Source of the DNA: Marsupella aquatica
Taxonomy: Eukaryota > Plantae > Marchantiophyta
Direction of reading: 5' to 3'
Length of the DNA: 64,000 bases
Assembly: GCA_973895155.1 (NCBI GenBank)
Contig: OZ316894.1
Location: 24,860,709-24,924,708 of the forward strand
Under the pieces are notes generated by a model. The model worked only from the letters and a program-made list of their open reading frames with translations. It did not search any database and was not told the DNA's origin. The translations under genes and the position numbers were made by a program. This document shows, piece by piece, positions 22,733 through 64,000 of this stretch. Numbering within the stretch: the stretch's first letter is position 1; each line of letters starts with the position of its first letter.

Positions 22733-24712
22733 GCCAAATGAATTCCATTCAAAAAGCCAGCATACAATAAGGGGGGGCCACAAAAAGGCATCACCCCAAG
22801 GGACCAAAGGTCTACGTGCAACAAAACCGGGAGGGCCGGCACCAGGAAGGAAGCTGGGCCTCAGAAAGAGGCAACTAAACAAGAAATTTAGAAACTGCAG
22901 TCGGAGCAGCACACTCCTAAAGACCGGCCAGTGATCAGGTTCCGGCGGGGTTCCATTCAGTGGGTCCGTGAGAGAGAAATGACTCAATCAGTCAGTCTGC
23001 AGTGCAGCTTCAAAACCTGAGCAGGGGCGGGGGGATCACGGTGGATGTGGAGGTACAGGCGGGACTTGAAGAATATCTTCATGAATCAGCCAAAGGCCTG
23101 TCCAGGTCCCATAATGCCTGGACATGTCGTGATGGGCATCCCTATAAGTAGTCGTGCCAACACGGATTCTGGCATTCTGGCGGGCCTAGTCCCGCCTTAG
23201 ATATATCCGAAGATGGTGCCAAGACTTTCTGATGACTCCCTGCGGATTAGGGCGGGTGTGTTCAATGAAGTGTGCACATCTATCTTTCCACACATTCTAG
23301 CAAATGATAGCCCGCAATGTGTGCCAGAGTTTCTCAGGGGTGTCCCATTCCTCACGCAATGGTTCACCCACCAAGATGTGTGCTGGCTGGAGAAGAACGG
23401 GATTGCCTCGGGTGAAGGCGCACATCTGCAGGACATATTGGACCCATCTCCATACGATCTGTGACTGAGCGCAGCTCCAGATGCAATGTACAATATCCTC
23501 CTGTTGGTCTGTTGCACATCTGGTGCACCACGTCCTGGGGTCCGTTGGTGGACGTCGCGGAAGTCTCCAATGTTGTGTTGCTGGAATCCTATAGATCAAT
23601 TGCCACAAATAGCAATTTTCACTTGCTGCACAAAATGTTAGCCAGGTATTGGCCCATAGTGAATGGGGATTGGGACTCCAATTAAGCCTGACGGCCCACT
23701 TGTGTACAGCCTTGTGTAATGTCTGTGGGAGAGGCCCCTGGATTTCCCGCAAATGTGCTGTGTTGGTATCCAGAAAAGGTAAGCCATCCTTCCATTCAAA
23801 GTGTAACAGGGGAGTAAGCAGACCTGTAGGCCTCCCAATTTGCTGCCTGAGGGCCACTGAGCTGCTGTGATGCCAAGTCAGTACACGGTGCAGCAGTGTT
23901 CCAGCCGGTGGGGTGATGTTATCTGACTTAGAAAGGAGGCCATTTACCACCCTGTATGTGTGCCTGGGTGTTGAGGTGTCATTAAACCTCTGCCACTGGG
24001 ATGTGATGTGATTTCTCTGTATCCTATATTCCCAAATGTGAAGATTCCCATTAGGCAGAGATGCCTCCATGAACATGGGAATCAACTGCATCGGTTGACT
24101 GTAGTTCCGGCACACATCGGAGGTTTGCCACCATTTTGTGGTAAGCCATGGCACAGCTTCTGGGCAGCAGCAAATTAAGGCCATCCTCCCACTCTAGAGG
24201 TTGACCACCTACATCCAAGATATCCTTCATACAGAGAAAGCCAGCTCTCATGATTTTCCTTTGCGGGTTGCTGCGGCACTTCGCTTGGTTTGCATTGATG
24301 TGGTTGAGATGCGGCATCCATAGGGGAAGATCACACCAGCCTTCCAAGTGCCCCGGGGGTGCTGGTCGCAGGTTTTTCTTAATGACATTCCATCCCGTAC
24401 AAATGTTGGTCCAAACTCTTGAACCATTCTTCGGTAATGTGTGACACTGTGTGAACACCCAAGAAAAATCCTCAGTTCCCCACTTCTGCTTCGACAGTTG
24501 CTTCAACTCGTATTGCAATATTCTACGCAGGGGGTGATCTCCTTCAGCCAGCGCCCAAACGATAAAATTCCCAGCCAATGCCCTGAACTGTGCTGCAAGT
24601 GAGATCAGCCCCAGTCCACCAAATATCTTAGGTCTAGTGATCGTGGCAAAGTCCACCCGGGAGCGGGCTTTCGAATTCTGGCCTGCCCAAATAAACGTAA
24701 TGATCTTCTTTT
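22733..24712 (-). mobile_element. 5'-truncated L1-like LINE: ORF2 C-terminal region with zinc finger (zf-RVT-like) and 3' UTR, frameshifted
   Basis: ORF 24051-24740 (FIWAGQ…RVDFATITRPKIFGGLGL) and ORF 23297-24184 (WQLIYRIPAT…WCTRC…EDIVHCIWSC) are typical of the plant LINE ORF2 C-terminus. Absent from unit B, where the flanks (gcacatgatgc / atgtgatctgtaaa) are separated by only ~25 bp. Confidence 0.9.
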
Positions 24713-31057: not shown

Positions 31058-31405
31058 TGTTAGGATTTACTCTTAGGTCTAGAGTTACGAATGTACCGTA
31101 GTTAGGGCTAACCTTAGTCGCAGACTTGGTTAGGTTAGTCATGTTGTGCATACTCTATAACCAAGCAGTGTTTGCTTGGAGAGGGGGAACTCAGGCTCAT
31201 TGTGACGGAGCTAGTTGAGAGATAGCGAGAGCTTGCATTGTGGATGCTTGGTATGGCCGGTCAGCCTAGAGTGCAGTAATAAAAGCTCGTGTGTGTTCCC
31301 GTGGACGTAGCCTCATGTGGAGTGAACCACGTATCTCTCGGTGTCGACTATTGTGTGTTGGATGGTTCATGGGCTTGCTGTTGCGATCGTCGTCTATGCT
31401 CAACA
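31058..31405 (+). mobile_element. Solo LTR (348 bp) of a family related to the adjacent copia element; TSD GGGTG
   Basis: TGTTAG…CTCAACA termini with GGGTG at 31053-31057 and 31406-31410. The 3' two-thirds closely resemble the LTRs at 32051 and 38821 (ggagctagttgagagatag…gtagcctcatgtgga…tctatgctcaaca). Confidence 0.9.
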
Positions 31406-32031: not shown

Positions 32032-32050
32032 TGGTTTCTTATGTATAATT

Positions 32051-32398
32051 TGTTAGATATTGCTCTAGTCTTGTGACTCATGAGCTAACCACAGTTAGTC
32101 TAACTCAGGTTAGGACTTAGCTAATGTTAGCGGTAGTGTTGTTGTGTATATAGCCAGGGCTGATGCCAGACTGTGGTGGAACTTAGGCTCATTGTTATGG
32201 AGCTAGTTGAGAGATAGGGAGAGCTTGTGCTGTGGATGCTTGGTATGGCCGGCCGGTTGGCCTAGAGTGCAGTAAAGCTCTTGTGTGTTCCCGTGGATGT
32301 AGCCTCATGTGGAGGTGAACCACGTATCTCTTAGTGTTGACTATTGTGCGTTGAATGGTTCATGGGCTTGCCGTTGTGAATGTTGTCTATGCTCAACA
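32051..32398 (+). repeat. 5' LTR of the copia element
   Basis: TGTTAGATATTG…GCTCAACA, followed by AG and the PBS. Confidence 0.95.
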
Positions 32399-32400
32399 AG

Positions 32401-32412
32401 TGGTATCAGAGC
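32401..32412 (+). other. Primer binding site complementary to the 3' end of initiator tRNA-Met
   Basis: TGGTATCAGAGC two bases after the 5' LTR. Confidence 0.92.
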
Positions 32413-34041
32413 ATGCCTGGGAGGTGACGAGGCTTTTTCGTGACAGGTTTTTCCAACGTTCATTGTCAATGGTACATTCGGAGTTTTGTCGCATGAAACT
32501 CGAATGTGTGTGGCTGTGAGGATAGGTTAGTGAGAGGGCTTTCTAACGGTGGTTAGAAATCACTGATCGGTATCCGTGGTGCGGAGGAATTGAAGTTTGC
32601 GTCGTTCACGTTTTATTCGTGTTCGACGGTATTTTCGGGGAGAGACCAGAGTTTGTGTTTTTCAACGGTGTGAACTGTGCGGTGCGGGAGGGATTGCACA
32701 TTATAGCTCAAGTTGAAGGTTGAAGCAAGCTGGTCATTTCGGTAGCTGATTTGCTGCCGAGTTGTGACCGAGTGCGACGTGACGAGTGAAGGAGACGTTC
32801 AGGTTTTTTCACAAGCTATGGAGCTTGTTCCCATCTGAACCGGGTTTCTCTTCATGACGTCTGACTCGGTGGACGAAACACGAAGTGCCATGGCTCAACG
32901 GTTTGATTGCGACGAGGCGGTCATTTTGAGCTCGGGATTGGTACTTGACGCGGAGTGAAGGCGATGCGACGGAAACAATTTACTCTGTTGGAGTTGCAGA
33001 CTGTGCCGGTGAAATTTGGCAACATTTTTTCCGTCGGCGATGTTCCCCTTTACTCATTGAAAACGATGGCGGTTGAGGTGAGTAATTGCCACTTTTTCTA
33101 GGGGGGGTCATTTTTGCTTTTAAACGGGTTTTACACACCCTTTTTTAGTGTGTACTGTGTGTATACACACACAGTATAGGCCGGCCCCGCGTACCCGGAT
33201 TTCCCCCCCGCACCCCATTTTTTCTGCCGTAGCGACGAGCTGCGCAGCGCCGGCCGGCGCTTCTCGCGCGCTCGTACGCCTTTTGGAAGCTGGCCCCAAC
33301 TCCCTTCGATGCGCCTTCAACGCGCCTTCGCACCCGACCATTTACGCCCGTGCCCTCGCGCTCGCGACCCCTGCTTGCGACCTGGCTCCCTGCCGGTCGC
33401 CTCGCCCTCGCCCTCCCCGGCCATTTTTTCAGGCATACGCGGCTGCGTATGCAATCGCCCGATACTGCCTTGTACACACCTTGTCGCCTGGTGTACCCGC
33501 GCATTTTTAAGGCGTATATTTTGTTAAGGGGATTTAGCACCCCCTTTAGGGGCTTTTAATAGTTTTTTTCTTCCCTCTTGTTTAACTTCGTGCCGGGACC
33601 TGCCGCCCTCCGTTTTAACCACTCCAACAGGGGGAACGGCCCCCTGTGAGACCTGCTGTACTGTGTGGGAATATTCCCAAAAAACAGAGAGCTGTTTTTT
33701 GGCCGTCCTACAAAGATTCTGTCTGTCGAACGGTAACTTTTTTGGTTCTTTTTTGGCAAGGACGTTGCCACTGGAGTTAGCAACGCGACACACCGATCAC
33801 ATTGCAATTCCGACGACCGGTTGTACTGGGTATTTTGGTTATTCTCCGAGGTGGTCAAAACGGAGGAGTTTCCCAAGGTTTTACCCACCCCGACCAAAAT
33901 TTGAATAACTTTTCCGTCGAATTTTGATTTTGATTTCGGCTTTCAGTATTGGACTCCTAGCTTTGTGGGCTACATGGCGGTGTTGAGTTTTGAGTTTTAT
34001 GAGAAGTTTCAAAAAAAGACATTTTTTCGTGATTGTTTCAT

Positions 34042-37000
34042 ATGAGTGACTCAGAGGATACTGGAAGAATTGGCGTCAGTGGAGCTTCAGGATCGCAACG
34101 GTCAGACAAAGAGTCTGAGGAAGAGCTGCTACCGTTTGAGGAGGAACTAGTGACACCGGTAAGATCACCAGTGCGGCGTGCAGTGGAGGAAGCTGTACTA
34201 CTACCAGAGCTGTCGGTAGTAGGGAAGAAGAGGGAGATGGCTAGATTCAGAGGAGTGAAGTTTGAGGTGGAGAAGTACGATGGTCATACTGATTACTTGC
34301 TGTGGGAGAAGCAAGTGAAGGGTGTTCTACGGGCCATGGGCTTAGCTCATCTGCTTTCATCGCAAGAGTAGTATGATGGAGAGGAGGAGATTTCAGTGAG
34401 GCAGTGGAGACAGGAGCAGGTGATTGCTGTCAATGCAGTGATGTTATATCTCAAGTCGCACATCATCAAGCAGCTGGATGATTATGCGGATTGCGCGTTA
34501 CTGTTCAAGGCTCTTAGAGAGAAGTACTACCGGGAAGATGCGTCAGACCGACTATACAAGAAGTCTCTCTTGATGAGCCTCAGGCTCAAAGAAGGGAGCA
34601 AGATGCAAGATCATCTAGATGAATTTGACAGTCTAGCGGTGGATCTGTCAAACCTGGGAAAAGGAGTTGAAGATGAGGATAAGGCCTTGCTTCTGCTAAG
34701 CTCCTTACCGCTGTCATATCAGGGCTTGAAACAGGTGTTGTTGTACAAAGATTTGAAGTCCATTTCGTATAATGAGGTGGTGAGCTCTTTACTGTCTGAT
34801 GATGCTCAGAAGAAGCTTGGTCAATCACAGATAGCATCTTCTTCTGGCACTGCGCTCAATGTGAACAGGGGAAGAGCAGCGCAACGCACGAATGGGCTGA
34901 ACAGGTTTAGATCTATATCACGGGGGAGATCTAAATCCAGAGGGAAATCGCAAGAGAGAAAGCCTCTTGCATGTTGGAATTGTGGCAAGCTTGGCCACAT
35001 GAAAAGGGATTATCGAGTAAAGGTCCCTACTGCCTCTGCTAACGCGGCATCGAGCTCGCATGAGGTAGATTTACTCGATGATGATGACATATTGTGATGT
35101 CAAGGTTATGCTCTTAACGTAGTGTCAAATCCAGGTAGTGATGACTGGATTCTAGATAGTGCATGTACTTTTCACATTTGCTCTAGGAGAGATTTTTTCA
35201 GTTCTTACACGGTTTCCAATGGATCAGTGTTGATGGGAAATGGAATCCCATATCAAGTTGTTGGACTTGGATTTGTAAGATTTCAGATGTTTGATGGTGC
35301 TGTGAGAACGTTGAGGAATGTGAAACATATTCCCACCATGATGAAAAATCTCATTTCACTTGGAGTTTTAGAAGCAAATGGCCATCAGTGGAGTTTTGCT
35401 AATGGTGTCCTTCAGGTTTCAACTGGTACTAAAGTTGTATTGAAGGGAAAGAGACATAGCAATCTATACGTTTTGGAGGGCAGTGTAGTCTGTGATCAAG
35501 CCAATGTAACCTTATCTCATGAGGAGACGGCCCGACTGTGGCACTTCTGTTTGGGCCACATGAGTGAAAAAGGTTTGGTTATTCTTCAACTCGGGGGTTT
35601 CACTTCCACAAAAATGACATATCACGTGCGACGAAGGATAGGGTCATTTTATTGGTTCTAAGGGAAGACTTAAGAATTTTTGTAGAAGAACAATAGGGTC
35701 TTTTAAATTCAATTTTGAGACTTATAAGAACACTAGGGTCTTTTCAATCCAATTTTTAGAATATTCTAACTTTATAGGGGTTAAAAAAAATTTAAAAAAA
35801 TTCTTACATTTTAGGGGGTCCGAGGCCTAAAAACGTCGCAGGCGATGGGGAGGTCCCCATATAGTGAGACCCCCGAGTTATTCAAAAGAAAGGATTACTT
35901 TCTAATTTGCAATATTGTAAGTTGGAATTTTGTGAGCACTGTGTGCTAGGGAAGCAGCACAGGAAACCCTTCGGAGTTGGAACTCACACCAGCAAGGAGG
36001 TACTTGAGTATGTACATAGTGATGTGTGGGGTCCAGCCCCTACTCCCTCACATTCTGGACGGTTATACTATGTCACGTTCATAGACGATTACTCAAGGTA
36101 TGTGTGGATATACTTTATACACAATAAGTCTGATGTTTTTGCCACTTTTAAGGAGTGGAAAGCCCAAGTAGAGAATCAGATTGGTAATAAGGTGAGATAT
36201 CTTCGATCGGATAACGACGGTGAATACAGTTCTAGGGAATTTGGAACGTATTGTAAGGAGCAGGGGATTACCCGCTATCTCACAACAAGTTATACTCCTC
36301 AGCAGAATGGTGTTTTTGAGAGACTCAACCGAACACTATTGGAACGCTCGAGGAGTATGTTGAATCAATCATGCTTACCACAGGAGTTTTGGGTTGAAGC
36401 TGTCAACACTGCAGCTTATTTGGTAAATTTTTCTCCATCCAGTTCTATTGGATTCAAGACGTCATTTGAAATGAGATACGGGCGTCCAACAGATTACTTA
36501 CATCTGAGGATTTTTGAATGTGATGCTTATGTGCTTACACCTTCCCAGCTTCCATCCAAGCTGGAGTCCAAGTCGAAGAAGTGCATTTTCCTTGGCTATC
36601 AGAAAGGTGTGAAGGGTTATAGGTTATGGGATCCAGTAACCTGTAAGCTAATTGTCAGTAGAGATGTATCCTTTAATGAGTCCAGATCATCAAAGGAGGG
36701 GGAGAGTTCTCAGGACTTCTATACTGACAAGGGGAAATCTCCCATCCCGGACCGGGTTGAGGGGGAGATTAGTCATGATGCAATTCATGACAGGAGAGAT
36801 GGAGAAGCTCCGGGTTTGGAGCTGGTTCCTGTGATCGAACAAGAGGAGCAGATTATTGCTGGGGTACCTCAAATTCGACCAGCAGCAGCAGATCAGCCTG
36901 AGTCATCTACTAGAAGAACTTCCAGTCGTTCTACTAGAGCTCCTACCAGGTATGGTCAATGGGCAGACTCATCTAAGCTAGATGATATTGACATTGCACC

Positions 37001-38613
37001 TGATGAAGATGACATGGCTTTGATCTTGGAAGAAGGAGAGCCTTCTTCGTACAATGAGACTTGTGCTTCAGAGCATAAGCATGAGTGGAATGCAACAATG
37101 CAGAGGGAGTTGCAATCTTTGAGTGACAACAAGACATGGAAGCTGGTGGAGCTTCCAAGAGGTCAGCAAGTGGTGGACAGCAAGTGGATTTACAAGTTGA
37201 AGGATAGTCCTTCAAAGGGTGGAGATAAGATCTACAAGGCAAGGCTTGTTGCCAAGGGGTTCACTCAGGAGAAAGGAGTGGACTACAATGAGGTCTTTTC
37301 ACCGGTGGCTAAGTATTCCACAATACGGATCTTGTGTCAGCTTGTTGTATTTTTTGGTCTGGTGATGGATCAGATGGATGTTGTTACTGCTTTTCTCTAG
37401 GGCAACTTGGAAGAGTTGATCTTCATGAGACAGCCACTAGGCTTTATGAAGAAGAGCCAAGAGAACTTAGTTTGCAGATTGCTCAAGTCCTTGTATGGAT
37501 TGAAGCAGTCTTCCAGACAGTGGAACAAGCAGTTTGATGATTTCATGTTTGCTCAAGGTTTTACAAGGATGGTGTATGATCCTTGTGTGTATACGAAATC
37601 AACCAAGAATGATGTGTTTGGTTTCATCATTCTAGTGATCTATGTGGATGACATGCTGATTGTGGCTAAAGATCAATCTGAAGTTGACAGTCTGAAGGCG
37701 AAATTAAGTGCTGAATTCAGGATGAAGGATCTTGGTAAGGCCAAGAGGATCTTAGGGATGAAGATTTTTAGGAACTCTGATACTGGACAGTTGTGCTTGA
37801 GTCAGGGCCAGTATGCGAGGAAAGTACTTGCACGATTCAACATGGAAAACTGTAAGCCAGTGAGTATTCCTTTAGCTTCACATTTCAAGTTATCATCAAC
37901 TTTCTCTCCTACGGATGCTGTGGAGAAAGGTCTGATGGCTAAGATTCCTTATGAGAAGACAGTAGGCAGTCTGATGTATTTGATGACTTGTACTAGGCCT
38001 GACTTGGCCCTAGCGATGGGCAAGGTTAGCAGATTCATGTCAAATCCAGGGAAGGTAGAGTCATTGGGAAGCTATGAAGTGGATTCTCAGGTATCTGAAG
38101 GGAACACAGGACTATGGATTACTATTTGATAATAGATCAAATAGAACGTTATTTGGCTATGTAGATTCTGACTATGGAGGCTGTCTGGATACAAGGAGGT
38201 CTACAACTGGGTTTGTATACACTCTTGGAGGAGGATGTATCAGTTGGAAATCTACCTTGCAGAAGTGCATTTCTCAGTCTACTACAGAAGCAGAGTATGT
38301 TGCAGCAGTAGAAGCAACAAAGGAGGCAATTTGGTTGGATAAGTTGATCGCGGAGATGGGTTTAGAGTATGGAAAAATGACTCTAAAGTGTGATAGTCAG
38401 AGTGCTCTTCACTTGGCTGCTAACCAGGTGATGGATAGCAGGGTGAAGCACATTGATATCAGGTACCATTTTATCAGGCAAACAATGTCTGATAAAACTT
38501 TTGAGCTAGTCAAGATTGATGGAAAGCTCAATCTCGCTGATGCCTTTACCAAAGTGATTCTTTTGGAGAGTTTCTCAAGACACCGTGCTACTTTGCAGGT
38601 TTTGCAGTTGTAG
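34042..38613 (+). pseudogene. Copia gag-pol polyprotein, disrupted
   Basis: ATG at 34042. Gag with zinc knuckle CWNCGKLGHMKRDY (last Cys changed to Tyr), protease WILDSACTFH, integrase (WHFCLGH…CEHC, HSDVWGP, LRSDNDGEY, ERLNRTL), RT (YKARLVAKG, IYVDDML) and RNase H (YVDSDYGG, TEAEY). In-frame stops at ~34371, ~35097 and ~37400, a MITE insertion, and a frameshift near 38060. Confidence 0.93.
35588..35879. mobile_element. MITE (~292 bp) nested in the copia integrase N-terminal region
   Basis: 17-bp TIRs AACTCGGGGGTTTCACT / AGTGAGACCCCCGAGTT (1 mismatch), AT-rich interior, TTC(A) on both flanks. Removing it restores GHMSEKGLVILQKKGLLSNLQYCKLEFCEHC. Confidence 0.88.
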
Positions 38614-38820
38614 TGCAAGTAGAGTTATTTAGCAATGTGTGACTATTTGTTTATGGGTTACTCATTCCTGTTTGACTACGACTTAGTTCTAGTTAACCCT
38701 TAGTTAACCCTTGTGATTTTTAGGGGGAGACCTGGTTTGGTGATTGTCTAGAACTTCCCGCTAAGGATTCCATATGGTAGCATTTAGTTCAGTCCCCAAG
38801 ACAAGAGTCAAGGGGAAGTT

Positions 38821-39163
38821 TGTTAGATATTGCTCTAGTCTTGTGACTCATGAGCTAACCACAGTTAGTCTAACTCGGGTTAGGACTTAGCTAATGTTAG
38901 CGGTAGTGTTGTTGTGTATATAGCCAGGGCTGATGCCAGACCCTGGTGGAACTTAGGTTCATTGTTACGGAGCTAGTTGAGAGATAGGGAGAGCTTGTGC
39001 TGTGGATGCTTGGTATGGCCGGTTGGCCTAGAGTGCAGTAAAACTCTTGTGTGTTCCCGTGGACGTAGCCTCATGTGGAGGTGAACCACGTATCTCTTTG
39101 TGTTGACTATTGTACGTTGGATGGTTCATGGCTTGCCGTTGTGAATGTTGTCTATGCTCAACA
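38821..39163 (+). repeat. 3' LTR of the copia element
   Basis: TGTTAGATATTG…GCTCAACA, preceded by the PPT and followed by TSD TAATT. Confidence 0.95.
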
Positions 39164-39644
39164 TAATTACACTAAAATCCTATTAGATGACATTTGGGGT
39201 TTTCAAAACAATTGTCTTTTGTGTATACAGTAAAATCTTGTTTAGACGGCTTTATGGGATATACTGCCCCAATGAAACTAAAACCAAAGCTTTTGCTCTA
39301 GTTTGGAGTGGCTATCATTGCCCATAATGCTGGAACAGGTCAAGCTTAGTAATCTTTTTTATTTTTTGTGACTTTAGTAAGATAAAGTAGAGTAGAATCT
39401 CCCTAAAGATAACCAGATTTTGAACTGGGCATTCCCATAAGGCCCTGACAAATAAAAATACATTAAGAAATAAAAGAGAGAACCAATAAAAATCTCGAAG
39501 GGCATCTAAAAATCAAAGAGATAAACGTTAAGAACTCAAAGAGACAAACGATTCTAGAACTCAAAGAGAGAAACGATTCTTTCTTATGAAGTCAACATTT
39601 AGAATCTGAGTTAAACGATTCTCTTACACAGTCAACAGCGCATT

Positions 39645-47285: not shown

Positions 47286-47543
47286 CTTAATAATTGCAGA
47301 TCAGAATGTGACAATAGAAGATGTATAAGGTATACTATGTCACTCAATACCATGATAAACCCAAATATTTTGTTTAACTCGCCAAGTGTTATTCTAAACA
47401 TGTATCTGGCTGTCCATTTTTTATGTTCAACCTACCAGGACACTTTAAGGCCTGCTGGAAGTCCTTCTCTCTTATTTATACAGTAAAATCCCATTATCAT
47501 GTGACAAGTTACTATTGGATAGCCTGAGCCCAGAGTGGTCATT

Positions 47544-47690
47544 TTGCTAACTTGTCCTCCAAATAAAATTGATTATCAATTTGTCCCCCATTTTGTATTT
47601 GGGTTAATATTAACTTGTATATGGTTCCGTAACCAAGTGAAACTGATGAAGGGGTTGATAATTAATTTTATTTGGGGGACAAGTTAGTAA
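47544..47690. mobile_element. Small foldback/MITE-like element with 36-bp inverted repeats
   Basis: TTGCTAACTTGTCCTCCAAATAAAATTGATTATCAA (47544-47579) vs the reverse complement of 47655-47690, 3 mismatches. Related one-armed copies at ~22253 and ~43900. Confidence 0.65.
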
Positions 47691-48039
47691 GATGCTCAAT
47701 GGAATATAGTGCCCCAAAGAAAAAGGAGAGCTTTTGCTCGAGTTTGGAGAGGCTATCATTGCCCATAATGCTCTCGGAATAGGAGCTTAGTACATTTTAA
47801 ATCTTTTTATATTGGGTGACTTTAGTAAGTTAAAGTAGAGGAGAATCTCCCTAAAGATATCCAGATCTTGAACTGGGCATTCCCATATAGCCAGCTCATC
47901 CTGGAACAAAAAATGTTAATTTGTCCTATGCAGGAGATTAAAAAGTTGGGGCAGAGTGAAAGGGAAAAAATAAATTCTTATGCCACGGGCAAGGGGATGG
48001 GTATCCAAGGGGAGGAGTATCCAATGCAGTGGGGGCAAC

Positions 48040-48710
48040 GGGAAGGGCTCGCTGGCGCAGGGCGCAGGGCAATTCAGTCTACGAGAAGGGGCTGGCGTGC
48101 CAGCGCGAAGGGCAAAAGGCAGGGCGCAGGGATGGGCTGGCGCAGGGATGGGCTGGCCCAGGGCGAAGGGCTGGCGAAGGGCGAAGGGCTGGGGAACACA
48201 GGGCAAGGCTCACATTGTGCAACGATCAACTCTCGATGTCTGATGGCGGCTGCGGCGGGTGTTGAGGCTGGACTCGAGCTGCTGTGGCATGGACTCGAGC
48301 TTTCTTGGCTGGTGGCTGCTGGACTCGAGCTGCTGTGGCTGGTTGGAGATGGACTTGAGCTGGGCTTGGGAGCTTGCTGGACTCGATCGATGACTTCATG
48401 CTGCTGCAGCCACTCTTGATGTTGCTCGTCTGATTCGCGATCGTTGCTGCTGATATCAATGTCACTGATCGATTGCTGCTGTCATTGAGCTACTGATGCT
48501 GCTGCTGCTGCTATTGATCGCTGTTGATGCTCTCATCGCTGCTGACATTGAGCTAATGATGCTGCTGATTGATTGCTGATGCTGCTGATCGATTGAGGCT
48601 GGACTCGATGTCTGATGTCTGCTCGCTCACTGCTGCTCGCTCTCTCTCTCTCTCACTGCTGCTCACTCTCTCTCACTCACTGCTGCTCGGTGTCTCTCGC
48701 TCACTGGAGT
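48040..48710. repeat. GC-rich minisatellites and microsatellites inside the HUH element
   Basis: (g)cagggc/gaagggctggc units at 48040-48190; ~21-bp ggactcgagctgctgtggc units at 48270-48380; tgc/gat and ctct tracts at 48440-48710. Confidence 0.8.
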
Positions 48711-49689
48711 CGTTTACTGCTGGAGTCATTTATCGCAGAGTAGTGTAGTGGTTCGCGCCATGCTAGAGCAATGAGCGAGCAAGCAGCAATGTTCTTCTCC
48801 TTCGATTCTCCCAAGCAGCAATAGCTGCGAGCTGAGAGCAGCTCTACAGTCTACGAACACAGTCCACAGTGGACAGTCCCCTCTCGCGATGCTGCCTTGC
48901 CTAACTAGCAAAAAGAAGTTTAGCTCAAGCTTGGACCTAGCAAGAGAAATGCCCCTTGCGGCTCTCTCGTCCATCGGCTTCGTGCAGCTCTAGGGAGCGC
49001 TTCATATGTGTTTACGGAGAGACAGACGCACGGTTCACAGGCAGAGGCATTTGAAAACGAAGAGAGACACGGGAAGGAGGTTAAGACAAGTTGAGCGAGC
49101 TTGTTCGGCTCACGTGAGCGAAGCTAGTGTAGAGCGAAGTCGCGTTATTGATGTTCCGCTTTTCATGACGAAGCCTGGTGATAGTGGAAGGAGGAGATGG
49201 CGACGGCCTAGTAGTCCCCTATGCTCCTCTTCTCTCTCGTCTAGCAAGAGGGATTTAGATTTGTTTTCATTTACTCTAGAGTCCTCCATCATCCGTTGTG
49301 AGTCTCTGTAAGGTGAAGGACCTTTCCATTTGGGGCCGAGGTTCCATAGTTGGTTAGTAGTTTGGCAGGAGTTGATAACTGAGCTGCGTTCATTTTTAAC
49401 CCCCTTGCAGCTCTCGTTTTGCTTGGTGGCTGAGACTGAGCAATCGCTGTCTAATGGTTCTTTGTGACGAGTCTTTCCATGTATCTTGGAGGCTTCCAAG
49501 TATTTTGGAGTTTGAAAAATGTATTTTGGAGTTTGAAAAATGAACGTTGTGTAATCTGTTTTCCAGACCAAATGTTTTGGGCCGGTGACCTTAGCATTTA
49601 GTTTGGGGGGAGACTACACTTGTTTCACTGCTACTTAAGCAGAGCCCTTGCCTTAGTTTATTCACTTCTTCAGTGAGTTTGCTCTTGCC

Positions 49690-50410
49690 TCTCAGTGCTC
49701 CGCTCTGTCACTGCTTCCCATTGTTCTCAACTCCTTCAGTGCATTTTTGTTCAGTGCTCCAAGGAGGTTTGGTTCAGTGTTGGTTTTCATTCAGTGCTCC
49801 AGTGGGGTTTCGTGCAGTGCTGTGCTCTAGTGGGGTTTTGTTCAGTGCTGTGCTCCGGTGAGGTTTCGTTCAGTGCTGTGCTCCGGAAGGGTGTCGTTCA
49901 GTGCTGTGCTCCAGAAGGGTGTCATTCAGTGTTGTGTTCTCAGTGCATTTGTTCAGTGTTGTGCTCTGGAAGGGTGTCGTTTAGTGCTGTGTTCTTGGTG
50001 CACTCGTTCAGTGCTGTGCTCCAGAAGGGTTTCATTCAGTGCTGTTCTCGGTGAGCTCGTTCAGTGTTGTGCTCCCGGTGCGCTTGTCAGTGTTGTGCTC
50101 CCGTTCAGTGTTGTGTTCTTGGTGCGATCGTTCAATGTTGTGCTCTAGGTGGGCTTGTTCAGTTCTGTGCTCTAGGGGCTCGTTCAGTGCTGTACTCTTG
50201 TGGGCTATCCTAGTGCTTGGCCCTCAACTCTTAGTGAGTGTTTGCTTATCATTCTAACAAGTGCTATGCTAACAAGTGTTTTGTTTTGCTGTGATCTTGT
50301 GCTAACCTGTGTTGTGCTAACCAGTGCTTGTGCTAACCAGTGCTCTGTTTTGTTGTGATCTTGTGCTTACCAGTGTGTTGCTAACCAGTGTTTTGTTCAT
50401 TGTGACCAAG
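49690..50410. repeat. Satellite arrays inside the HUH element, upstream of its ORFs
   Basis: About 15-18 copies of a ~25-30-bp unit with core TTCAGTG(C/T)TGTG(C/T)TC at 49690-50200, then TGCTAACCAGTG units at 50250-50410. Confidence 0.85.
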
Positions 50411-50432
50411 TTTGGCATAGTTTACAGCTCTA

Positions 50433-50792
50433 ATGTCCTCTGTCGAGTCACAGCTCCTAGAGGACGACTCTAATATTTCGCCCTACACAACATTGGATGT
50501 TGGTAATTTTATTTTAGAGAACATTGAGGCAACAACCTCTCATTGTGTTAGGGACGTCCAATTCTGCTGGGTAGTTTGTCGCCAAGGAGAAGAGAAACTT
50601 CTGGCAGGTCCATTTAAGATACTAGAACGTACAGAGCAGACAGGGAAGGACGAAGTTATTGTTGAGTCCAAGGGGAAAGTGTATTTTATTGTGAAAGCTG
50701 ACGATATTTATCCTGTGTTTTTGTTTGAGTATCGTGACTGTATTTGTGCATCTTCTCGTGAACTGTGTGCCCATCTTACATGGCTTCTTTGA
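50433..50792 (+). CDS. 119-aa ORF in the HUH element with a C-terminal CxC-x6-CxH (SWIM-like zinc finger) motif
   Basis: ATG-initiated, globular-looking composition, ends in DCICASSRELCAHLTWLL; overlaps the HUH ORF start by 13 nt. Confidence 0.55.
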   Translation: MSSVESQLLEDDSNISPYTTLDVGNFILENIEATTSHCVRDVQFCWVVCRQGEEKLLAGPFKILERTEQTGKDEVIVESKGKVYFIVKADDIYPVFLFEYRDCICASSRELCAHLTWLL

Positions 50793-51652
50793 AGCGTAAA
50801 GCTCGTGTTGTGCAAGAGAAGGATGTCTCTTTGATGGACAGTGTCATGGAACTGAGCATTACAGTAGGGTACCTTGGTGCAGATGTTCATGTTGAAGAAC
50901 TGAACCTTATGAATGGATTGATAAGAGACCATTGCATATCTGGTCTTGTAGCATTAGAGAGAGGAGAACTAGAAAGTCATTTGCATATGCAAATGGTTGT
51001 GAGGGCCAAAACAAAGTCTGCTAGATCATTTGGTGTGCTTGTACGAAAATATATGGGCTGGCAGGGGATGAAGAATATGAATCTTGTAGGAAAAGTGATG
51101 TGTAAAAATCTTACCAATAGACAGTTACACACTTTTAAAGGAATGATTGGTTACTGTTTGAAAGATATGGGCATGGCTCATTTTCAGCATGCAATGTTTA
51201 ATATCTCTGATGAAGATGTGATTGCAGGGAAACAGCTTCATTCAATCTATGGACGTGCAGATTTAAAATCTAGAGTGACATTGACTAACAAGAATGTTGC
51301 AGAGAGAATGTATGTCTGGTACAAATATAAAATTGAGAGACCTTTGCATGCTACTTTGGTTTCTACATTGACTGAAATGATAAAATCTGGTATTTTTATA
51401 CCTGCTTCTAGTTGGATAATACCATTGAATGGACAGGGCATGGAAAAATCACGAATGACATGTCTCTGGAAATGTATTGTTGATCCTTGTAATGTAACTA
51501 AATGTGAGATTGAAGAAGTTTTTGTCAGGAAACCTAGGACTGGCAGTTGGGGAAGATATCATAGTGATTCTGAACTTGGAGAGGATCCAGAATTGACCCC
51601 TAGGAGTACAGAGACAGAGCTCTCTCCCCAAAGGAGCTCTTTGAAAAGTTGA
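50780..51652 (+). CDS. Rep-class HUH endonuclease/transposase with a single catalytic Tyr (Replitron type), 290 aa
   Basis: Motif I-like ELSITVG, motif II ERGELESHLHMQ (HUH at 50978-50992), motif III GMIGYCLKD (Y at 51152), then a helical C-terminal region (…SGIFIPASSWII…LWKCIVDP). No Walker A motif or helicase. Confidence 0.88.
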   Translation: MASLKRKARVVQEKDVSLMDSVMELSITVGYLGADVHVEELNLMNGLIRDHCISGLVALERGELESHLHMQMVVRAKTKSARSFGVLVRKYMGWQGMKNMNLVGKVMCKNLTNRQLHTFKGMIGYCLKDMGMAHFQHAMFNISDEDVIAGKQLHSIYGRADLKSRVTLTNKNVAERMYVWYKYKIERPLHATLVSTLTEMIKSGIFIPASSWIIPLNGQGMEKSRMTCLWKCIVDPCNVTKCEIEEVFVRKPRTGSWGRYHSDSELGEDPELTPRSTETELSPQRSSLKS

Positions 51653-52086
51653 AAGTGAAGACAGAATGTGATAGAAGGGTTCGTTTTGATGACATTTTCA
51701 CAAAGTCTATCATTCCTGACAGGGGAGTTACATATGGTGATCCCCTTGGTGAGTATGTGCCTTTGAAAGATAGACAAAGGATTCCAAAGCATGATTATCT
51801 TGAAACTATTAATTTGTTGGAGGAGAAGAATGTTGCAGGAATGAGAAAGGGGAAAGAGAAGATGGAAGATGTGGAGATGGAAGATGTGACAGAGGTATCC
51901 TCTGATGATGAGGAAGTAATTCCTGCCCCTGTTTTTGAGGACAGGGGCCAGTCCAGTGAGAGGAAAAAAGGAAAAATTACCTTATTAAGAAAATCACTTT
52001 TCAGAGTGAAGACTGAGCCCAGATCTCCTAGGACACATTGCAAGGGAGATGGGTTTGCTATGGAGCCCTTTCAAAATAATTGGTAA
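51649..52086 (+). CDS. Acidic/basic low-complexity ORF overlapping the HUH stop codon (possible frameshifted C-terminal extension or third ORF)
   Basis: 145 open codons beginning at the TTGA overlap, containing KGKEKMED…SSDDEE; no ATG at its start; possible GTAAGC donor at its end. Confidence 0.35.
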   Translation: MKVKTECDRRVRFDDIFTKSIIPDRGVTYGDPLGEYVPLKDRQRIPKHDYLETINLLEEKNVAGMRKGKEKMEDVEMEDVTEVSSDDEEVIPAPVFEDRGQSSERKKGKITLLRKSLFRVKTEPRSPRTHCKGDGFAMEPFQNNW

Positions 52087-52271
52087 GCTTTTTCAATTCT
52101 CATTCAAGTTTCATTTGTGTGCTTGGAGTGGATGTGAGCATTGGGATGGGGGATTGGGTGTAGTGATAGTGGGTAGGTTAGGGGGGGTTCTCTGCTTGGA
52201 AGGATGCACCTGCAATTTGGGGTTCAATTCCCCATCAGAGATTTGTTCATTACACTAAAATAGTAGAATAT

Positions 52272-52492
52272 CATATTGGTGGATTATTGATATAGGGTCC
52301 ATTTTTTATCACGTTGGAGAAGACACTAGCTATTTCCCAATGTTTGAGAATACACTCGGCTACTTTCATTTCCATATTGGTGATTATTGATATAGGGTCC
52401 ATTTTTTACCACGTTGGAGAAGACACTCCTTGAGAAGACACTTGCTATTTTCATTTCCCAATATTTGAGAATACACTCTGCTACTTTCATTT
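52272..52492. repeat. Subterminal ~100-bp direct repeat of the HUH element
   Basis: catattggtg.attattgatatagggtccatttttta.cacgttggagaagacact…tttgagaatacactc.gctactttcatttcc occurs twice. Confidence 0.8.
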
Positions 52493-53655
52493 CCCAAGGA
52501 AACAGGGTGATATCCAAAATGATTTTAAGGGGGTGCCATGGAACACTCATTTTCCTTAAAGGGGTAGTTTTAAAATTGGCAGCCTTGGTTTTATTAAAAA
52601 TTATAAGGGCCTAAAATAATTCAAAGAACACTTCCATTTGATACTGTTAAGTACATTAACAATTACATTAATGCAAAAAAATAAATTACAATCAAAAACA
52701 TGAAACGACGCTTCACCATATAGTAGCATCAAAAAATTTCAGATCTTGAACTGGGCATTCCCATAATGCTTTGAAAAATACAAAGGAAAAAATCACGAAG
52801 TGCATTAAGAAATAAAAGAGAGAAGCATTAAAAATCTCGAAAGGCATTTGAAAATTAAAAAGAGAAACGTTAAAGAGAGAAGCTCAAAGTCTTCATTCGA
52901 TTCTCTCTTATGAAGAGAGAAAGTCAAAGAGAGATGAAGTCAAAATGAAGTCAAAATGTTGACTTCATAAGACAGAATCGATTGAAGAAAGGCATTTAAA
53001 AATCAAAAAGAGAACGAAGCCGAAAAGAGAGAATGATATGAAGTCAACATTTTGAATCTGAGAGAAAAGTTTCTCTTGTACAGTCAACAGCGCATTCTGA
53101 ATCTGAGTGTGGAGACCACTCCTTCCCGTTGGATTGACTGCCGGACTGAGCTGGGAGAATGCATTCCAAATCTGAGTGTGAAGACCACTCCTTGCGGTTT
53201 GGATTGATTCCTGGACTGAGCTGTGAGAATGCAGAAGCTGGCTCAGACCCAGACCACTACTGTAGTTCCGGTTTAGATTTAGCTTAACTGAGCTAGGTCA
53301 ACAACCGAGTCTGAATTGAAAATGCAATAACGTGAGATTGAAAAAGCTGGCTCAGGCCCAGACCGCTACTTCCCGTTTAGATCTCATTTCAAGTCACCTA
53401 TATAATTACGAGAGCTCAGAGTTAAAATGCACTCCCGTTGTCGTTCATCACTCTTGATCCTTTCAAACTATTGTAGTATCTCGATTCACAACACCACTAT
53501 CGACTATTTCAATTCACAAGACCAATTTTGACTCATTGAAACGTATGTTAGATTCACAAGAATAGACAAGACTGGGTGATAAGTTTGACAGAGTGAGATC
53601 TCAATAAGGAGAGGTCGATCCTGAGTTTGCATTCATAGCAGCTCGAACACGAACA

Positions 53656-57559: not shown

Positions 57560-59050
57560 ATCGGAAGATGGTCGACGTGTTGCAAAATTTATCGTAAGAT
57601 TGTCGCAATGTCCCTCAAAAACGGCATTTCTCTTAAAATTAACGGAATTTCTCTTGATATTCATCATTCTCATTGCATACTTTCCGAGCAAAGACCTTTC
57701 CAAATTTTAGCTCCTGGAAAGAGCTTTTCCCTTGATCAACTTGCAAAAAATTGACCAAGTCTCAAGATCTCCTTCACAACGTTTTAAAAAGTTGATTCTA
57801 AGTTATCAGCCTTGACTGTTTTTGTGCAACTATTTTTCCTCCTTGTTGGTTGCCTACAACCATTCATTTCGAAAAACTCCCCCAGCTATCCTAGAATTGT
57901 GAAGAATTGTTGTTATGCTGGAGACTTATCCAATAAATTCAAAAAAGCTCTATCCACACTGATGTCAATTTATTTCATCCACCTAAGATCCAGGCGACCC
58001 TTCTCACGTTTAAAGCTCACATTTAAAGTCTGTACTTCCTGTCATGAGATCTGACTTTGTTTCAGGAATTTTTCCCATGATGAACCTGAAGTTGCCATTT
58101 CAGAATTGGCATGAAAGTGGAACTTTAACGAGCACGGCCATAGCTCCCAGCCGTTACTGGAAGACGCAGCTCTCTCTCTTCCTCTTTTCGTCTTCTAGGA
58201 CCATACCTATGGGAGCACAATGGGTTCACAAGACGATGGGCTCTTGTTCTGACCTGAGAAAGTGGTACTCCATCACTTACCACAAGCTTGCTCGCCTCGT
58301 TGGTAGACCCATATTTGAAACTTGACACAGACCGATGTGCCCCACACATGGGCGTGGCCGATCCCCTGCCGCAAACACTAGTGCACATTCCTCGTTGGGC
58401 GAGGCATACCTTTCCGCACCAGGAAGGCACGCACCTGGTCAACCCTCTATTCTCCCAGCGCATCGATAGACGCCCTTTCCGTCCATCTAGAGCCTCGCTT
58501 TACTCCGCAATCTTGATGGTACCTTCAATTCAGCTGAGTCTGCTGTCCTCTCCGGGAAAATTTCTCACGTACCACTTTCCGAAACACCCAACAAATATAC
58601 TGTCGGGACCGCCTCGAACGAAATCCTTTTCATTGGACTCAATCCAGCACAATCCTTGCAGCACTGACTTACCAAGGAATGGACACTTATAAACATGTAG
58701 CCATAATCCCTCCGTCGTTGCTTTTTGGGAGGAATGGCTGGCTACTGGGCTCCTTGTCTCCGCACTTCTCCGCGAGAAGATCTTTCCCAAACTATCTGGT
58801 AGACTCTTCAATTCGCTGCAGTCGTCAAGTATTACTGCTCTCAGAGACGAAATGCACCCTATTCTGTCCGGAAGGGTCTTTAAACGTTCACAGTTTCGAA
58901 TCCGAAGGATTTCTAGAGAGGAGAAGTCACCAAGCTCTTCTGGTAAACTGCTCAGCATTTCCGCCCGAACATCGAGTTTCTTCAGCGCTGGAAGCTGCCC
59001 TACGCAAGCCGGCAACCTTTGCAACTTATTGGCCTTGATAGACAGTTTCC
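57560..59050 (-). pseudogene. Plant NLR-type leucine-rich-repeat fragment or pseudogene
   Basis: 58780-59050 encodes LPACVGQLPALKKLDVRAEMLSSLPEELGDFSSLEILRIRNCERLKTLPDRIGCISSLRAVILDDCSELKSLPDSLG. Weaker stop-riddled LRR-like frames lie at 57560-58050. No start codon or NB-ARC domain seen. Confidence 0.7.
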
Positions 59051-59854: not shown

Positions 59855-61389
59855 TCAAATGCTAGTATTCATTCTCTTTTCTTTGAACATTGTTACAAGG
59901 GATGCATTGACCCATTCCATTGCAGTTGTTGAACAAAAAGCAATCTGCAACAAATCAGGTTCTCTTTCTGTAACTGTCCCCCGCAACCTACTAGGGAAGC
60001 ACATGGGACCAATAACAATATCCCAAGAATGTTCTTCATCGAACATGTTTCCTTCATAGAACTTTTTCCAATCATTGTGTTCATCCTGGAAGACTCGTAC
60101 CTTAAACCTGTGTCCAGAGGGCGTACAGGAATTTCCATGAAGTACTCCAAGATCTAACATGAAGTGGAAAAGTACAACTGGATCCTCCCTAGGTCTTGTC
60201 AGATGATTGAAGAGAGGAAACTCGTAAGCTGCCTGCACATTGTTAGTCATATAAAATGCTGGATTCACCAAAAATTCCGTATGGTATTTTCTAGGTTCAA
60301 TCCCTCGTCGACAGAAGCTGCTGATAAAGCTATCACGTGTGCCATGATAAAAAGAACTTGTCTGCTGTCCTTCAATGGGTGCCAAACTGTAACTGATATG
60401 GTGAGCACAAAGCTTTGAATCTGCAGAAAACAATGCTGATCGTTCTTTAATTAACATCTTTCGATTTCTGTCATTCCTTGGAGGGGTTATAAACGCTGGC
60501 ATCTCAATCAAAATGCTCACAACCGTTTGAAAATAATCCTTCGTTGCCCTTGTTCTATAGTTGAATTGGTCTTCATCACTCCCACCTCCACCACTGGTCT
60601 TGTTCGAGCCCTCACCTCCACCACTGCTGCTGTTTTGGCCATCACCTTCACCTGGTCGACCTCCAATCAATAACTGGTCTTGCTGTTCTGAACCACCACC
60701 TCCACATGTTCGAATTCCACTCTTTGCTTGGGCTCGTGGTTCCTCCTGATTTCCACCAATTTGCACTTGCCCATTGGATTCCCTGGATTTGATCTGCTCC
60801 TCCTTCAAGTATGCACCAAATCTGAGGTCGTATAGAATAGTTTCGAAAATTGCTTTTTTCGACTGGACAAATAGAGTTTCAATCCCAAGTTCTGAATTCT
60901 TCAAGTCTTCTATATTTGCACAAATTTGACTCATCACTATGTCAGATAGAATGGGTAGAAATGAATCCAGAAGATCCTCTACTGAAGTTGCAGGTCCTCT
61001 CACATCTTCATCGTTCAGTTCTTGTAAGGCTTCTAAAGCATGATCCCAAATAGTGAATGAAAACAACCAATCATCACAAAGATCCAAAAACGACCTCCTA
61101 AATACTTCTTCCACAGGAATTCTATTCCTCAACCTAGGGGTCCGTGGCACAATCTCCTCCCATCCCTTAGCCCATGGAACCTGCAAAGAAGAATCCGAGC
61201 CAACTATCCGTGGCAGACACGAAGAAGGTTGTATTGCGAAACCATCTCTATCCGCAAAGAACTGCACACACAATGAGATACAATGAGATTGATATTCAAA
61301 CCGATCCTTAAAAAAACCTAGAACATTTTGCAGCACTCAACAAGAAGAAGAAGAGGTCTTAAGATGAAGGGCAGGAGGATTCTCACCAT
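59855..61389 (-). CDS. Putative ADP-ribosyltransferase-fold (DUF3990-like) protein, ~469 aa; model: ATG micro-exon 61389-61387, intron, exon 61261-59855
   Basis: Uninterrupted 1.4-kb frame; ACAATG|GTGAGA donor and TGTGCAG|TTC acceptor give an in-frame M-FFADRDG start. The C-terminal domain has FYHGT, AFYMTNNVQAAYEF, DWKKF, WDIVIGPM and QIAFCSTTAMEW, joined by a Gly/Ser linker to a helical N-terminal domain. Confidence 0.7.
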
Positions 61390-62899: not shown

Positions 62900-64000
62900 A
62901 CCGATCGCTTCTTTAAATCCTTTCGGAGCTTAGCTATCAACAACACGATTCATCAACTGTTCAACGATGAGGACCAGCTAGTCCACGAATGGGATGACAT
63001 GGCTGTAACTGCGACCACTTTTTTTGGGAAAATCCTTGGGCACTCAGCTGGCTTACATCCTGAACAACTGGCGAGGGTACTGGCGTTGCAAACTGAGTCC
63101 ATCTCAGAGGAGGATAGGGCACATTTGAATGCACCGCTCACATTGGAGGAGCTCAGGCTGGCGGCTTCTGCTCTAGCGAAGAACAAATGCCCTGGTCCCG
63201 ATGGTGTCCCAGCAGAATTCTTTGTGGCAAACTGGAATACAGTTGGAACTTCACTGCACAGGACCCTGCTCTTGGGTATGTCATCCGAAGGTTTCTTACC
63301 GGAATTTACCAGAGGCCTTATTGTTCTATTGAGCAAGAAGGACGATCAACGTCGTCTTACTAACAAGCGGCCCATCACTCTACTGAACGTGATCTATAAA
63401 ATCGGGGCCACGTGATCTATAAAATCGGGGCCACGTGATCTATAAAATCGGGGCCAAAGCCTTTCAGATGCGCCTTACACCAATTCTCCAACATTTTATT
63501 ACGCCCCAGCAATTCCCCTTTCTCCCGGGCAGAAATATACACCATTCACTTATGTTACTCAATGAGTCAATACATCAAGCGTCATCTATTGGCCTCGATT
63601 ACATCTTCATGAAACTGGATGTTACTAAGGCTTTCGATAAGCTGGAGTGGAGCTTTCTCTTATCTCTCCTGGAGAGGGTGGGCTTTGGTGGGCAGCTCAC
63701 ACAGTTTTTGTAGGCAACTCATGCCTCGGCTACATCGTCAATACTCCTCAATGGTAAGATGGCTACCCCATTCGGACTTGCACGTTCCATCAGACAGGGC
63801 ACACAGTTTTTGCAGGCAACTCACGCCTCGGCTACATCGTCAATACTCCTCAATGGTAAGATGGCTACCCCATTCGGACTTGCACATTCCATCAGACAGG
63901 GCTGCCCACTATCGCCACTGCTGTTCTTGATAGCCATCGATGCCCTCAGTCGCATGATTCTTTGGGAAGCTGAAAGGGGATCCATTTAGGGGGTGTTTTT
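62900..64000 (+). mobile_element. L1-like LINE ORF2 reverse transcriptase fragment (5' truncated, disrupted, runs off the window)
   Basis: KCPGPDG, RPITLLNVIYKI, KLDVTKAFDKLEW and SIRQGCPLSPLLF motifs; disrupted by internal tandem duplications and stops. Confidence 0.92.

Follow-up and report, generated by a model that had tools for sequence, protein, structure and literature searches.

How does a eukaryotic transposon that encodes a HUH-type Rep nuclease and no helicase integrate into its host? The question is raised by a locus of the liverwort Marsupella aquatica (GenBank assembly GCA_973895155.1, contig OZ316894.1, positions 24,860,709 to 24,924,708 of the forward strand), a 64,000-nucleotide stretch that we refer to as the window, containing an element that is virtually certain to be a Replitron, a DNA transposon with a single-tyrosine HUH Rep. 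The Replitron group is known and little studied; in the parts of Craig 2023 consulted here (PMC10288648) its mechanism is stated to be open, and termini and targets outside Chlamydomonas are unfixed because de novo insertions are lacking. This locus pairs an occupied site with its empty counterpart in a land plant, and adds to them ATA^TAG as a candidate nick site, a contig that may be a head-to-tail junction and a conserved second gene; each of these features offers a concrete test of integration by a helicase-less eukaryotic HUH transposon. What appears to be new is the long target-site duplication (TSD) with its empty site, together with a conserved accessory open reading frame (ORF); a literature search, in which subscription journals were not covered, turned up no title that dealt with TSDs or accessory ORFs of plant Replitrons.

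The reading that we favour, with moderate confidence, is of a Replitron with ATATAG ends and a 23–26-bp host duplication, which inserted by a rolling-circle-type reaction after the surrounding DNA had been duplicated, and whose left end is exact and right end likely imprecise.

The insertion, its empty site and its ends

The window contains GDSL-lipase-like genes, a copia long terminal repeat (LTR) element and a tandem segmental duplication (approximately 22200–57300), with unit A at about 22.2–43.85 kb and unit B at about 43.85–57.3 kb; the units differ by 4.7% substitutions (347 mismatches in 7451 aligned bases, in five blocks of at least 500 bp). An earlier note on this DNA had proposed that unit B carries an insert missing from the paralogous site in unit A (39414–39439), and alignment of the units bears this out: unit A 39254–39439 matches unit B as far as 47887, and 39414–39531 matches again starting at 52740. 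An exact 26-bp repeat brackets the insert, and the empty site has a single copy of it that is identical at 25 of 26 positions. The window has 141 exact repeats of at least 20 nt, and only three are left after a spacing filter that dropped repeats of the segmental duplication, the LTR pair and the tandem arrays; one of the three is the repeat bracketing the insert. The proposed insert length of 4852 bp (47888–52739) holds if all 26 bp of the repeat are assigned to the host. The span proposed for the element, 47862–52765, does contain the insert and also includes two exact copies of the 26-bp host sequence, and its boundaries are less sharp than the near base-exact ones claimed, the left being exact to 3 bp, according to which side owns the bases ATA, and the right to 16 bp, the length of a short tail. 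Neither the TSD, the terminal hexamer repeat and the tail nor the upstream ORF figures in the earlier note. The element is thus laid out as TSD, ATATAG, interior, ATATAG, tail and TSD, with the following features.

39414..39439, forward strand: empty paralogous site in unit A, with one repeat copy
47862..47884, forward strand: left TSD copy, 23 bp (26 bp, to 47887, if the ATA is host-derived); exact repeat of 52740–52762
47885..47890, forward strand: left terminal direct repeat ATATAG, the family left boundary from contig starts; its ATA is also in the empty target
47891..47950, forward strand: conserved left subterminal sequence, common to many probably non-autonomous copies as judged from depth
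52272..52494, forward strand: subterminal degenerate direct repeats of 100–120 bp, two of which hold an internal ATATAG (52290, 52390)
52718..52723, forward strand: right terminal direct repeat ATATAG in the context CACC-ATATAG, its boundary placed from the start of a contig of run X2
52724..52739, forward strand: tail of 16 bp separating the right repeat from the TSD, likely copy-specific as judged from contig boundaries
52740..52765, forward strand: right TSD copy, 23 bp plus ATA; exact repeat of 47862–47887

Contigs from a 31-mer assembly of four sequencing runs (X1–X4), in which rare variants are dropped, were used to ask which of these bases belong to the element. The number placed on 47830–47990 is 52 for X1, 17 for X2, 7 for X3 and 38 for X4. 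In X1, X2 and X4, three host-paralog contigs in each run account exactly for the depth on 47862–47884, and the long repeat is therefore host DNA rather than part of the element. A more diverged contig, present in three of the four runs, links 47857 to 52759 through 31 other letters (those of X1), and reads as a third empty paralog. The ATA with which the element starts is already present at the empty site, a coincidence with a chance frequency of 0.014–0.025, such that the TSD measures 23 bp with the ATA assigned to the element and 26 bp with it assigned to the target; the presence of this ATA suggests insertion at a mimic of the nick site. Very probably the 23–26-bp host repeat was made at insertion and is a TSD.

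The left end is defined by other copies of the family. At least 16 contig records begin their alignment at 47885 with unrelated flanks (at least 7 in X1, 2 in X2, 2 in X3 and 5 in X4; agreement 0.46–0.63), and depth jumps at 47885, with none extra on the 23 bp upstream. At least seven further contigs begin at 47894–47895, with a flank consensus that ends in an ATATAG-like hexamer plus CAT(A), and at least three reach to 47883. These flank readings are based on 24 of 61 loose-end rows and 31 of 114 contig pieces, among which loci may recur between runs. The family left boundary is the ATATAG at 47885, and the same 6 bp recur at 52718–52723 as a terminal direct repeat. A repeat search also agrees with the earlier proposal that terminal inverted repeats (TIRs) and LTRs are lacking: among 11 inverted pairs found none joins both ends, and no LTRs were found.

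At the right end, a single-copy junction contig of run X2 (52694–53158, zero mismatches) starts 30 bases before 52724. The left side shows an equal 30-base overlap (47894 versus 47923), and the sister copies therefore likely diverge just after the right hexamer. To judge from this contig start, the right boundary likely lies directly after the ATATAG at 52718–52723, and we lean slightly towards reading the 16-bp tail as a copy-specific, fuzzy end. The tail sequence is absent elsewhere in the window at up to three mismatches, and an exact 30-nt right-end pattern had no match in metagenome_contigs.

One of the nine upstream-flank rows listed (a single X2 contig, depth 30) fits the element's own right end in register. 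It matches at 15 of 30 positions by eye (binomial p 0.024, uncorrected), with the six bases beside the hexamer exact, and passes at the hexamer from right-end-like sequence into the left end, with no tail in between. This contig may be a head-to-tail junction or an insertion at the end of another copy, and either would fit a model in which both ends share a nick site.

The element is multi-copy and dispersed. Inner contigs show 0–3 differences over 175–340 bp to sister copies, at a depth several times that of the flank contigs, and a second subfamily is present that is approximately 10% diverged. Set against the 4.7% divergence of the units, the near-identity of the sisters supports insertion well after the duplication, as the earlier note had supposed in calling the insertion young; the Replitron likely inserted after the tandem duplication, and this copy is likely young. 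Summed contig depth at 47891–47950 rises to 26,400 in X1 and 8,100 in X4, compared with about 30–60 at single loci; such summed depth is an indication only and not a copy number, and points to many short, probably non-autonomous copies. As a separate observation, the ratio of left-end depth over 47896–47950 to that of single loci in organism A (X1/X4) is about ten times the ratio in organism B (X2/X3), again as depth rather than copy number, a gap that is possibly a lineage-specific burst of short non-autonomous copies.

The Rep transposase and the upstream ORF

The coding features of the element, and the regions upstream of them, are as follows.

48000..49200, forward strand: GC- and CpG-rich 5' region with short degenerate repeats (GC 0.49–0.68)
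49745..50210, forward strand: tandem array of repeats of about 27–28 bp, upstream of the genes
50433..50792, forward strand: ORF1, 119 residues, Cys/His-rich, with CxC-x6-CxH near its end; overlaps the Rep start by 13 nt
50780..51652, forward strand: Replitron single-tyrosine (Y1) HUQ Rep transposase, 290 residues (Pfam, AlphaFold2 [AF2] model and structural match)
51604..52086, forward strand: open frame of 160 codons, likely the Rep C-terminal tail of sister copies, out of frame in this one

The Replitron assignment made in the earlier note is upheld by Pfam matches above both cut-offs and by the predicted fold. The Rep matches Replitron_HUH (PF21859) with E 2e-16 and 60.7 bits (cut-off 28.5) and Replitron_C (PF21860) with E 1e-6 and 29 bits (cut-off 27). 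The motifs named previously are present in the 290-residue ORF, with HLHMQ starting at residue 67 and GYCLK at residue 124, and as claimed there is no helicase match. The full set comprises motif I (SITV, 26), Glu 60, HLHMQ (67–71, of which HMQ is 69–71) and GYCLK (124–128), followed by domain 2 at about 174–248. There are 688 homologous representatives at E ≤ 0.001, and in 101 aligned Rep sequences the E, H, Q, G and Y are nearly invariant and the K invariant. With this alignment the AF2 model has a mean predicted local distance difference test score (pLDDT) of 94.3 and a predicted template-modelling score of 0.84, superseding a model built from five sequences (pLDDT 35.6). The protein of 50780–51652 models as a HUH Rep, as had been predicted, and domain 2, a putative oligomerisation domain, is helical with high pLDDT. 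The top VIA-align match is the duck circovirus Rep 7kii (Z 9.7, root-mean-square deviation 3.3, 99 aligned), and all seven of the best rows are viral Reps of the CRESS-DNA group (viruses whose circular DNA is single-stranded and encodes a Rep); sequence searches of the PDB gave nothing below E 0.1. Neither the Rep ORF nor ORF1 nor the tail frame matched a helicase family. A Helitron, in which a two-tyrosine (Y2) Rep is fused to a PIF1 helicase, is ruled out by the single Tyr motif and the lack of a helicase, and a TIR transposon (CACTA, MULE or hAT) by the lack of an end-joining inverted repeat and of a DDE family.

The earlier note described the 290-residue protein as intact, and this is so for the catalytic core and not for the C-terminus. 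Sister contigs in all four runs carry one extra base after 51645, accounting for 131.5 of a total depth of 450.6 in X1, 86.4 of 86.4 in X2, 472.5 of 563.2 in X3 and 185.6 of 333.7 in X4. Together with the open frame at 51604–52086, this indicates that the sisters likely encode about 435 residues, and that the Rep of this copy has likely lost about 145 C-terminal residues. The one-base difference could be either a private frameshift or an assembly error.

ORF1 is, we are quite confident, a real gene. By eye, candidate splice acceptors lie at about 50427 and 50729. Two homologues were found among 172 collected proteins. The first, P0005, is one of two candidates, is 63% identical over 98% of the length and also ends in CAHLxWLL. 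In the second, P0157, a distant relative, an ORF1-like region (32% identical) is fused in frame to a Rep sharing 50% identity with the one described here. Five cysteines are common to all three, and ORF1 and P0005 have a CxC-x(n)-CxH pattern with spacers of 6 and 13 residues. ORF1 has no Pfam match at E ≤ 10 and only weak rows in NCBIfam and PHROGs, such that no family profile names it; the pattern may be that of a SWIM zinc finger, and the middle of the protein may, as judged by eye, resemble an SH3-like barrel. A complex prediction for Rep with ORF1 scored 0.00 with alignments not used and the fold of the partner uncertain, and is evidence neither way. ORF1 is likely a zinc-binding accessory factor that would assist movement by the Rep in one sub-clade; that none of 18 distant metagenome loci showed it beside the Rep (below) indicates that it marks a sub-clade rather than the whole family. 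Further upstream, 48000–49200 has 8–14 CpG per 200 bp, compared with 0–1 in the Rep ORF, and is likely a promoter or 5' leader.

A model for insertion and its alternatives

The closest comparison is with Replitron-1 and Replitron-N1 of Chlamydomonas reinhardtii which, in the portions of the source at hand, insert after RG, have TAAAGG repeats and acquire right fuzzy ends from the parent's flank; their TSDs are variable, at 2–8 bp by eye in the Fig. S3 list (PMC10288648). Like them, and within what could be compared, this element has a Y1 HUQ Rep with domain 2, no helicase and a 6-bp terminal direct repeat, and a precise left end beside a short target motif, which recurs just ahead of the right repeat; extra bases and then the TSD follow that repeat (PMC10288648, PMC9977147). 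It differs from Replitron-1, on the same portions of the same sources, in its repeat (ATATAG rather than TAAAGG), its apparent target (ATA rather than RG), its TSD (23–26 bp rather than 2–8 bp, roughly three times the longest listed in Fig. S3), its length (4.84–4.86 kb rather than 3.6 kb), its overlapping upstream ORF1 and its land-plant host, and in that no significant right-end hairpin was found (PMC10288648, PMC9977147); a right-end subterminal hairpin is given for Replitron-1 only in the material seen (PMC10288648). In the sections of Dataset S4 and Fig. S3 compared, RG precedes the right TAAAGG in Replitron-1, -N1 and -1_cInc (PMC10288648). Here ATA precedes the right TAG, and taken together these suggest that one nick site is used at both ends and that the target mimics its upstream half. 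Replitron right ends also coincide with translocation breakpoints in the excerpted account (PMC9977147).

Land-plant Replitrons appear in the consulted parts of Craig 2023 as consensus families from moss, Isoetes, Selaginella and fern, and as liverwort transcripts (PMC10288648). This Rep shares with them an M-x-SLKRKAR-type start, a GYCxKD motif and a long C-terminal tail (Dataset S5, PMC10288648, as far as compared), and by eye is closest, among the passages compared, to the Dataset S5 protein '...navicularis_1' (PMC10288648). Several algal and plant consensus right ends in the same partial material have CCAT(AT)- or CACTAT-like motifs that resemble CACCATATAG by eye (PMC10288648). Unlike the element described here, these land-plant families are reported, in the parts consulted, without TSDs or fuzzy ends and with no second ORF mentioned (PMC10288648), and the portion of the main text that was searched makes no mention of a second gene in Replitrons (PMC10288648). 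This element is also longer than every consensus in the seen part of Dataset S1 (maximum 4507 bp; PMC10288648).

A further parallel is IS91, in which, according to the excerpts seen, orf121 overlaps tnpA and sharpens termination (PMC13181058). As there, this is a helicase-less HUH transposon with a small ORF over the transposase start and with one precise and one leaky end, the latter in IS91 giving one-ended transposition that carries adjacent DNA; unlike it, the IS91 Rep is bacterial, Y2 and of independent origin, such that the likeness of ORF1 to Orf121 is one of analogy only (PMC13181058, on the same excerpts).

From these comparisons a plausible sequence of events can be assembled, which as a whole we regard as about evenly poised between right and wrong, every step beyond the anatomy being conjectural. 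The Rep would nick single-stranded donor DNA within ATATAG, most simply as ATA^TAG, and hold the 5' end on Tyr125 until it is joined to a host 3'-OH behind a matching ATA. The strand would be displaced and copied by host enzymes, since the element has no helicase. If the reaction terminated cleanly at the right ATATAG, the products would be circles or head-to-tail junctions; if it overshot, it would leave the 16-bp tail. The duplication would arise as the host repairs a break of the second strand 23–26 bp upstream of the nick. More speculatively, and with clearly less confidence, a land-plant sub-clade of Replitrons may be a two-gene system, in which a Rep that nicks ATA^TAG at both ends and inserts at host mimics of that site is paired with a dedicated zinc-binding partner governing termination in the manner of IS91 Orf121, with long TSDs, fuzzy right ends and head-to-tail junctions as routine outcomes. 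If true, this would make TSDs and fuzzy ends features of Replitrons in general, not a peculiarity of Chlamydomonas that depends on Fanzor, and would open the nick site to direct testing.

Several observations weigh against the reading we favour. Only one insertion is resolved at both ends, and the 23–26-bp TSD may for that reason be a one-off repair product. Both junctions of this copy were seen in run X2 only, and the window may itself derive from that run. A flank contig of X1 and X4 that lacks one base at 47859 ends at 47878, 7 bases before the element, and X3 was 57% read. The tail is weakly like the left end (shuffle p 0.048) and may instead be an extension that is conserved but begins with a private base, and this copy also differs from its sisters at 47891–47893. 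Five terminal stretches were folded as DNA and none gave a terminal hairpin beating shuffles (z -0.5 to 0.9), and the head-to-tail-like contig is equally explained by insertion into another copy's end. Foldseek with the Rep model gave no match at E ≤ 0.001, the best, at E 0.004, being among weak rows only. ORF1 was found near the Rep in none of 18 metagenome loci by tblastn and its motif in none of 16 scanned, and the P0157 fusion may reflect no more than a frameshift that arose by chance in a copy undergoing decay.

The first alternative, which is possible though we doubt it, accepts the TSD as real and makes the tail a fixed part of the element, with its right end at 52739. Besides the weak likeness of the tail to the left end, the alignments of Replitron-1_mVir and -1_aNel run 5 and 11 bp past the repeat in the part of the source seen (PMC10288648), and contigs would break just as they do at a true boundary if 52724 were a private base. 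The start of the X2 junction contig 30 bases before 52724 argues otherwise, as does the head-to-tail-like contig, which joins at the hexamer with no tail.

Slightly less probable is that this is a copy of an ordinary, TSD-less Replitron family that was patched into a chance double-strand break, with both duplication and tail as one-off products of repair. That no TSD or fuzzy end is reported outside C. reinhardtii in the parts of Craig 2023 considered, which treat those of Chlamydomonas as probably non-canonical (PMC10288648), tells in its favour, as does the single example here. A repeat of 26 bp is far above the 2–8 bp of the Fig. S3 list (PMC10288648, by the part seen), and the two repeat copies are preceded by 9-base stretches that agree at 5 of 9 positions, compatible with microhomology repair. 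Chance patching fits poorly with a left junction that is exact both at the family boundary and at a matching ATA, and with an order of repeat, tail and TSD that is that of Replitron-1 insertions (PMC10288648, on the same partial basis).

We consider it very unlikely that the element is older than the tandem duplication and was lost from unit A by recombination between the repeats. Such a loss would also leave one repeat copy, and a perfect 26-bp repeat at 4.7% divergence has a probability of 0.29; however, the third paralog-like contig is also without the insert, the sisters differ by less than about 1% in the contigs listed compared with 4.7% between the units, and a TSD at the original insertion would still be required. 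Even less credible is that the 26-bp repeat is a long terminal direct repeat of the element, which integrated site-specifically into a matching host sequence in the manner of a Crypton: the perfect repeat and near-identical target would be accounted for, but other copies have unrelated flanks upstream of 47885, host paralogs alone explain the depth of the repeat, and the enzyme is a HUH Rep and not a tyrosine recombinase. An endogenous CRESS-DNA virus or a domesticated host gene, suggested by a fold closest to circovirus Reps, can effectively be set aside given the lack of a helicase match, the Replitron-specific domain 2 and the many dispersed copies with one common terminus. The Rep nuclease fold is indeed like that of circovirus and nanovirus Reps and of pMV158 RepB (Z 9.7–7.2), with the HUQ motif as in circoviruses; unlike those viruses the element has no superfamily 3 helicase and no identified capsid-like ORF, and is integrated and multi-copy.

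Relatives and setting of the locus

Related metagenome loci (n = 18) are 26–43% identical to this element; many are broken and they do not define its ends, and none of the 16 tested has a flanking exact repeat longer than 15 bp. These degenerate Replitron copies (L001–L018) lie in long plant-like contigs of metagenome assemblies, several of them at shared orthologous loci.

Around the element, a motif like the target, CATT-x-CCATAATGCT, lies at 47750–47774, about 110 bp upstream of the insertion site, and since further paralogs are present in the reads the Replitron flank is itself a small repeat family. A MITE-like short inverted-repeat element (miniature inverted-repeat transposable element) at approximately 47545–47690 in unit B is just 5' of the Replitron, with very high contig depth and many loose ends. 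Rfam gave no match over 47400–53200.

The tandem duplication carries GDSL-lipase-like genes and other exons, and unit A has several more insertions, none with long flanking repeats. One of its occupants is a Copia-type LTR retrotransposon at 32049–39163, with an LTR identity of 95.7% and gag-pol split over several ORFs, and a solo-LTR-like piece is at 31183–31405. Fragments resembling the reverse-transcriptase region of long interspersed nuclear elements by eye, with no Pfam match at E ≤ 0.1, are at 23297–24184 (reverse strand) and 62999–63930. At 59855–60934 (reverse strand) a 359-residue ORF with a weak DUF3990 match (E 0.015) adjoins a leucine-rich repeat fragment (58530–58958), and is possibly a plant immune-type gene.

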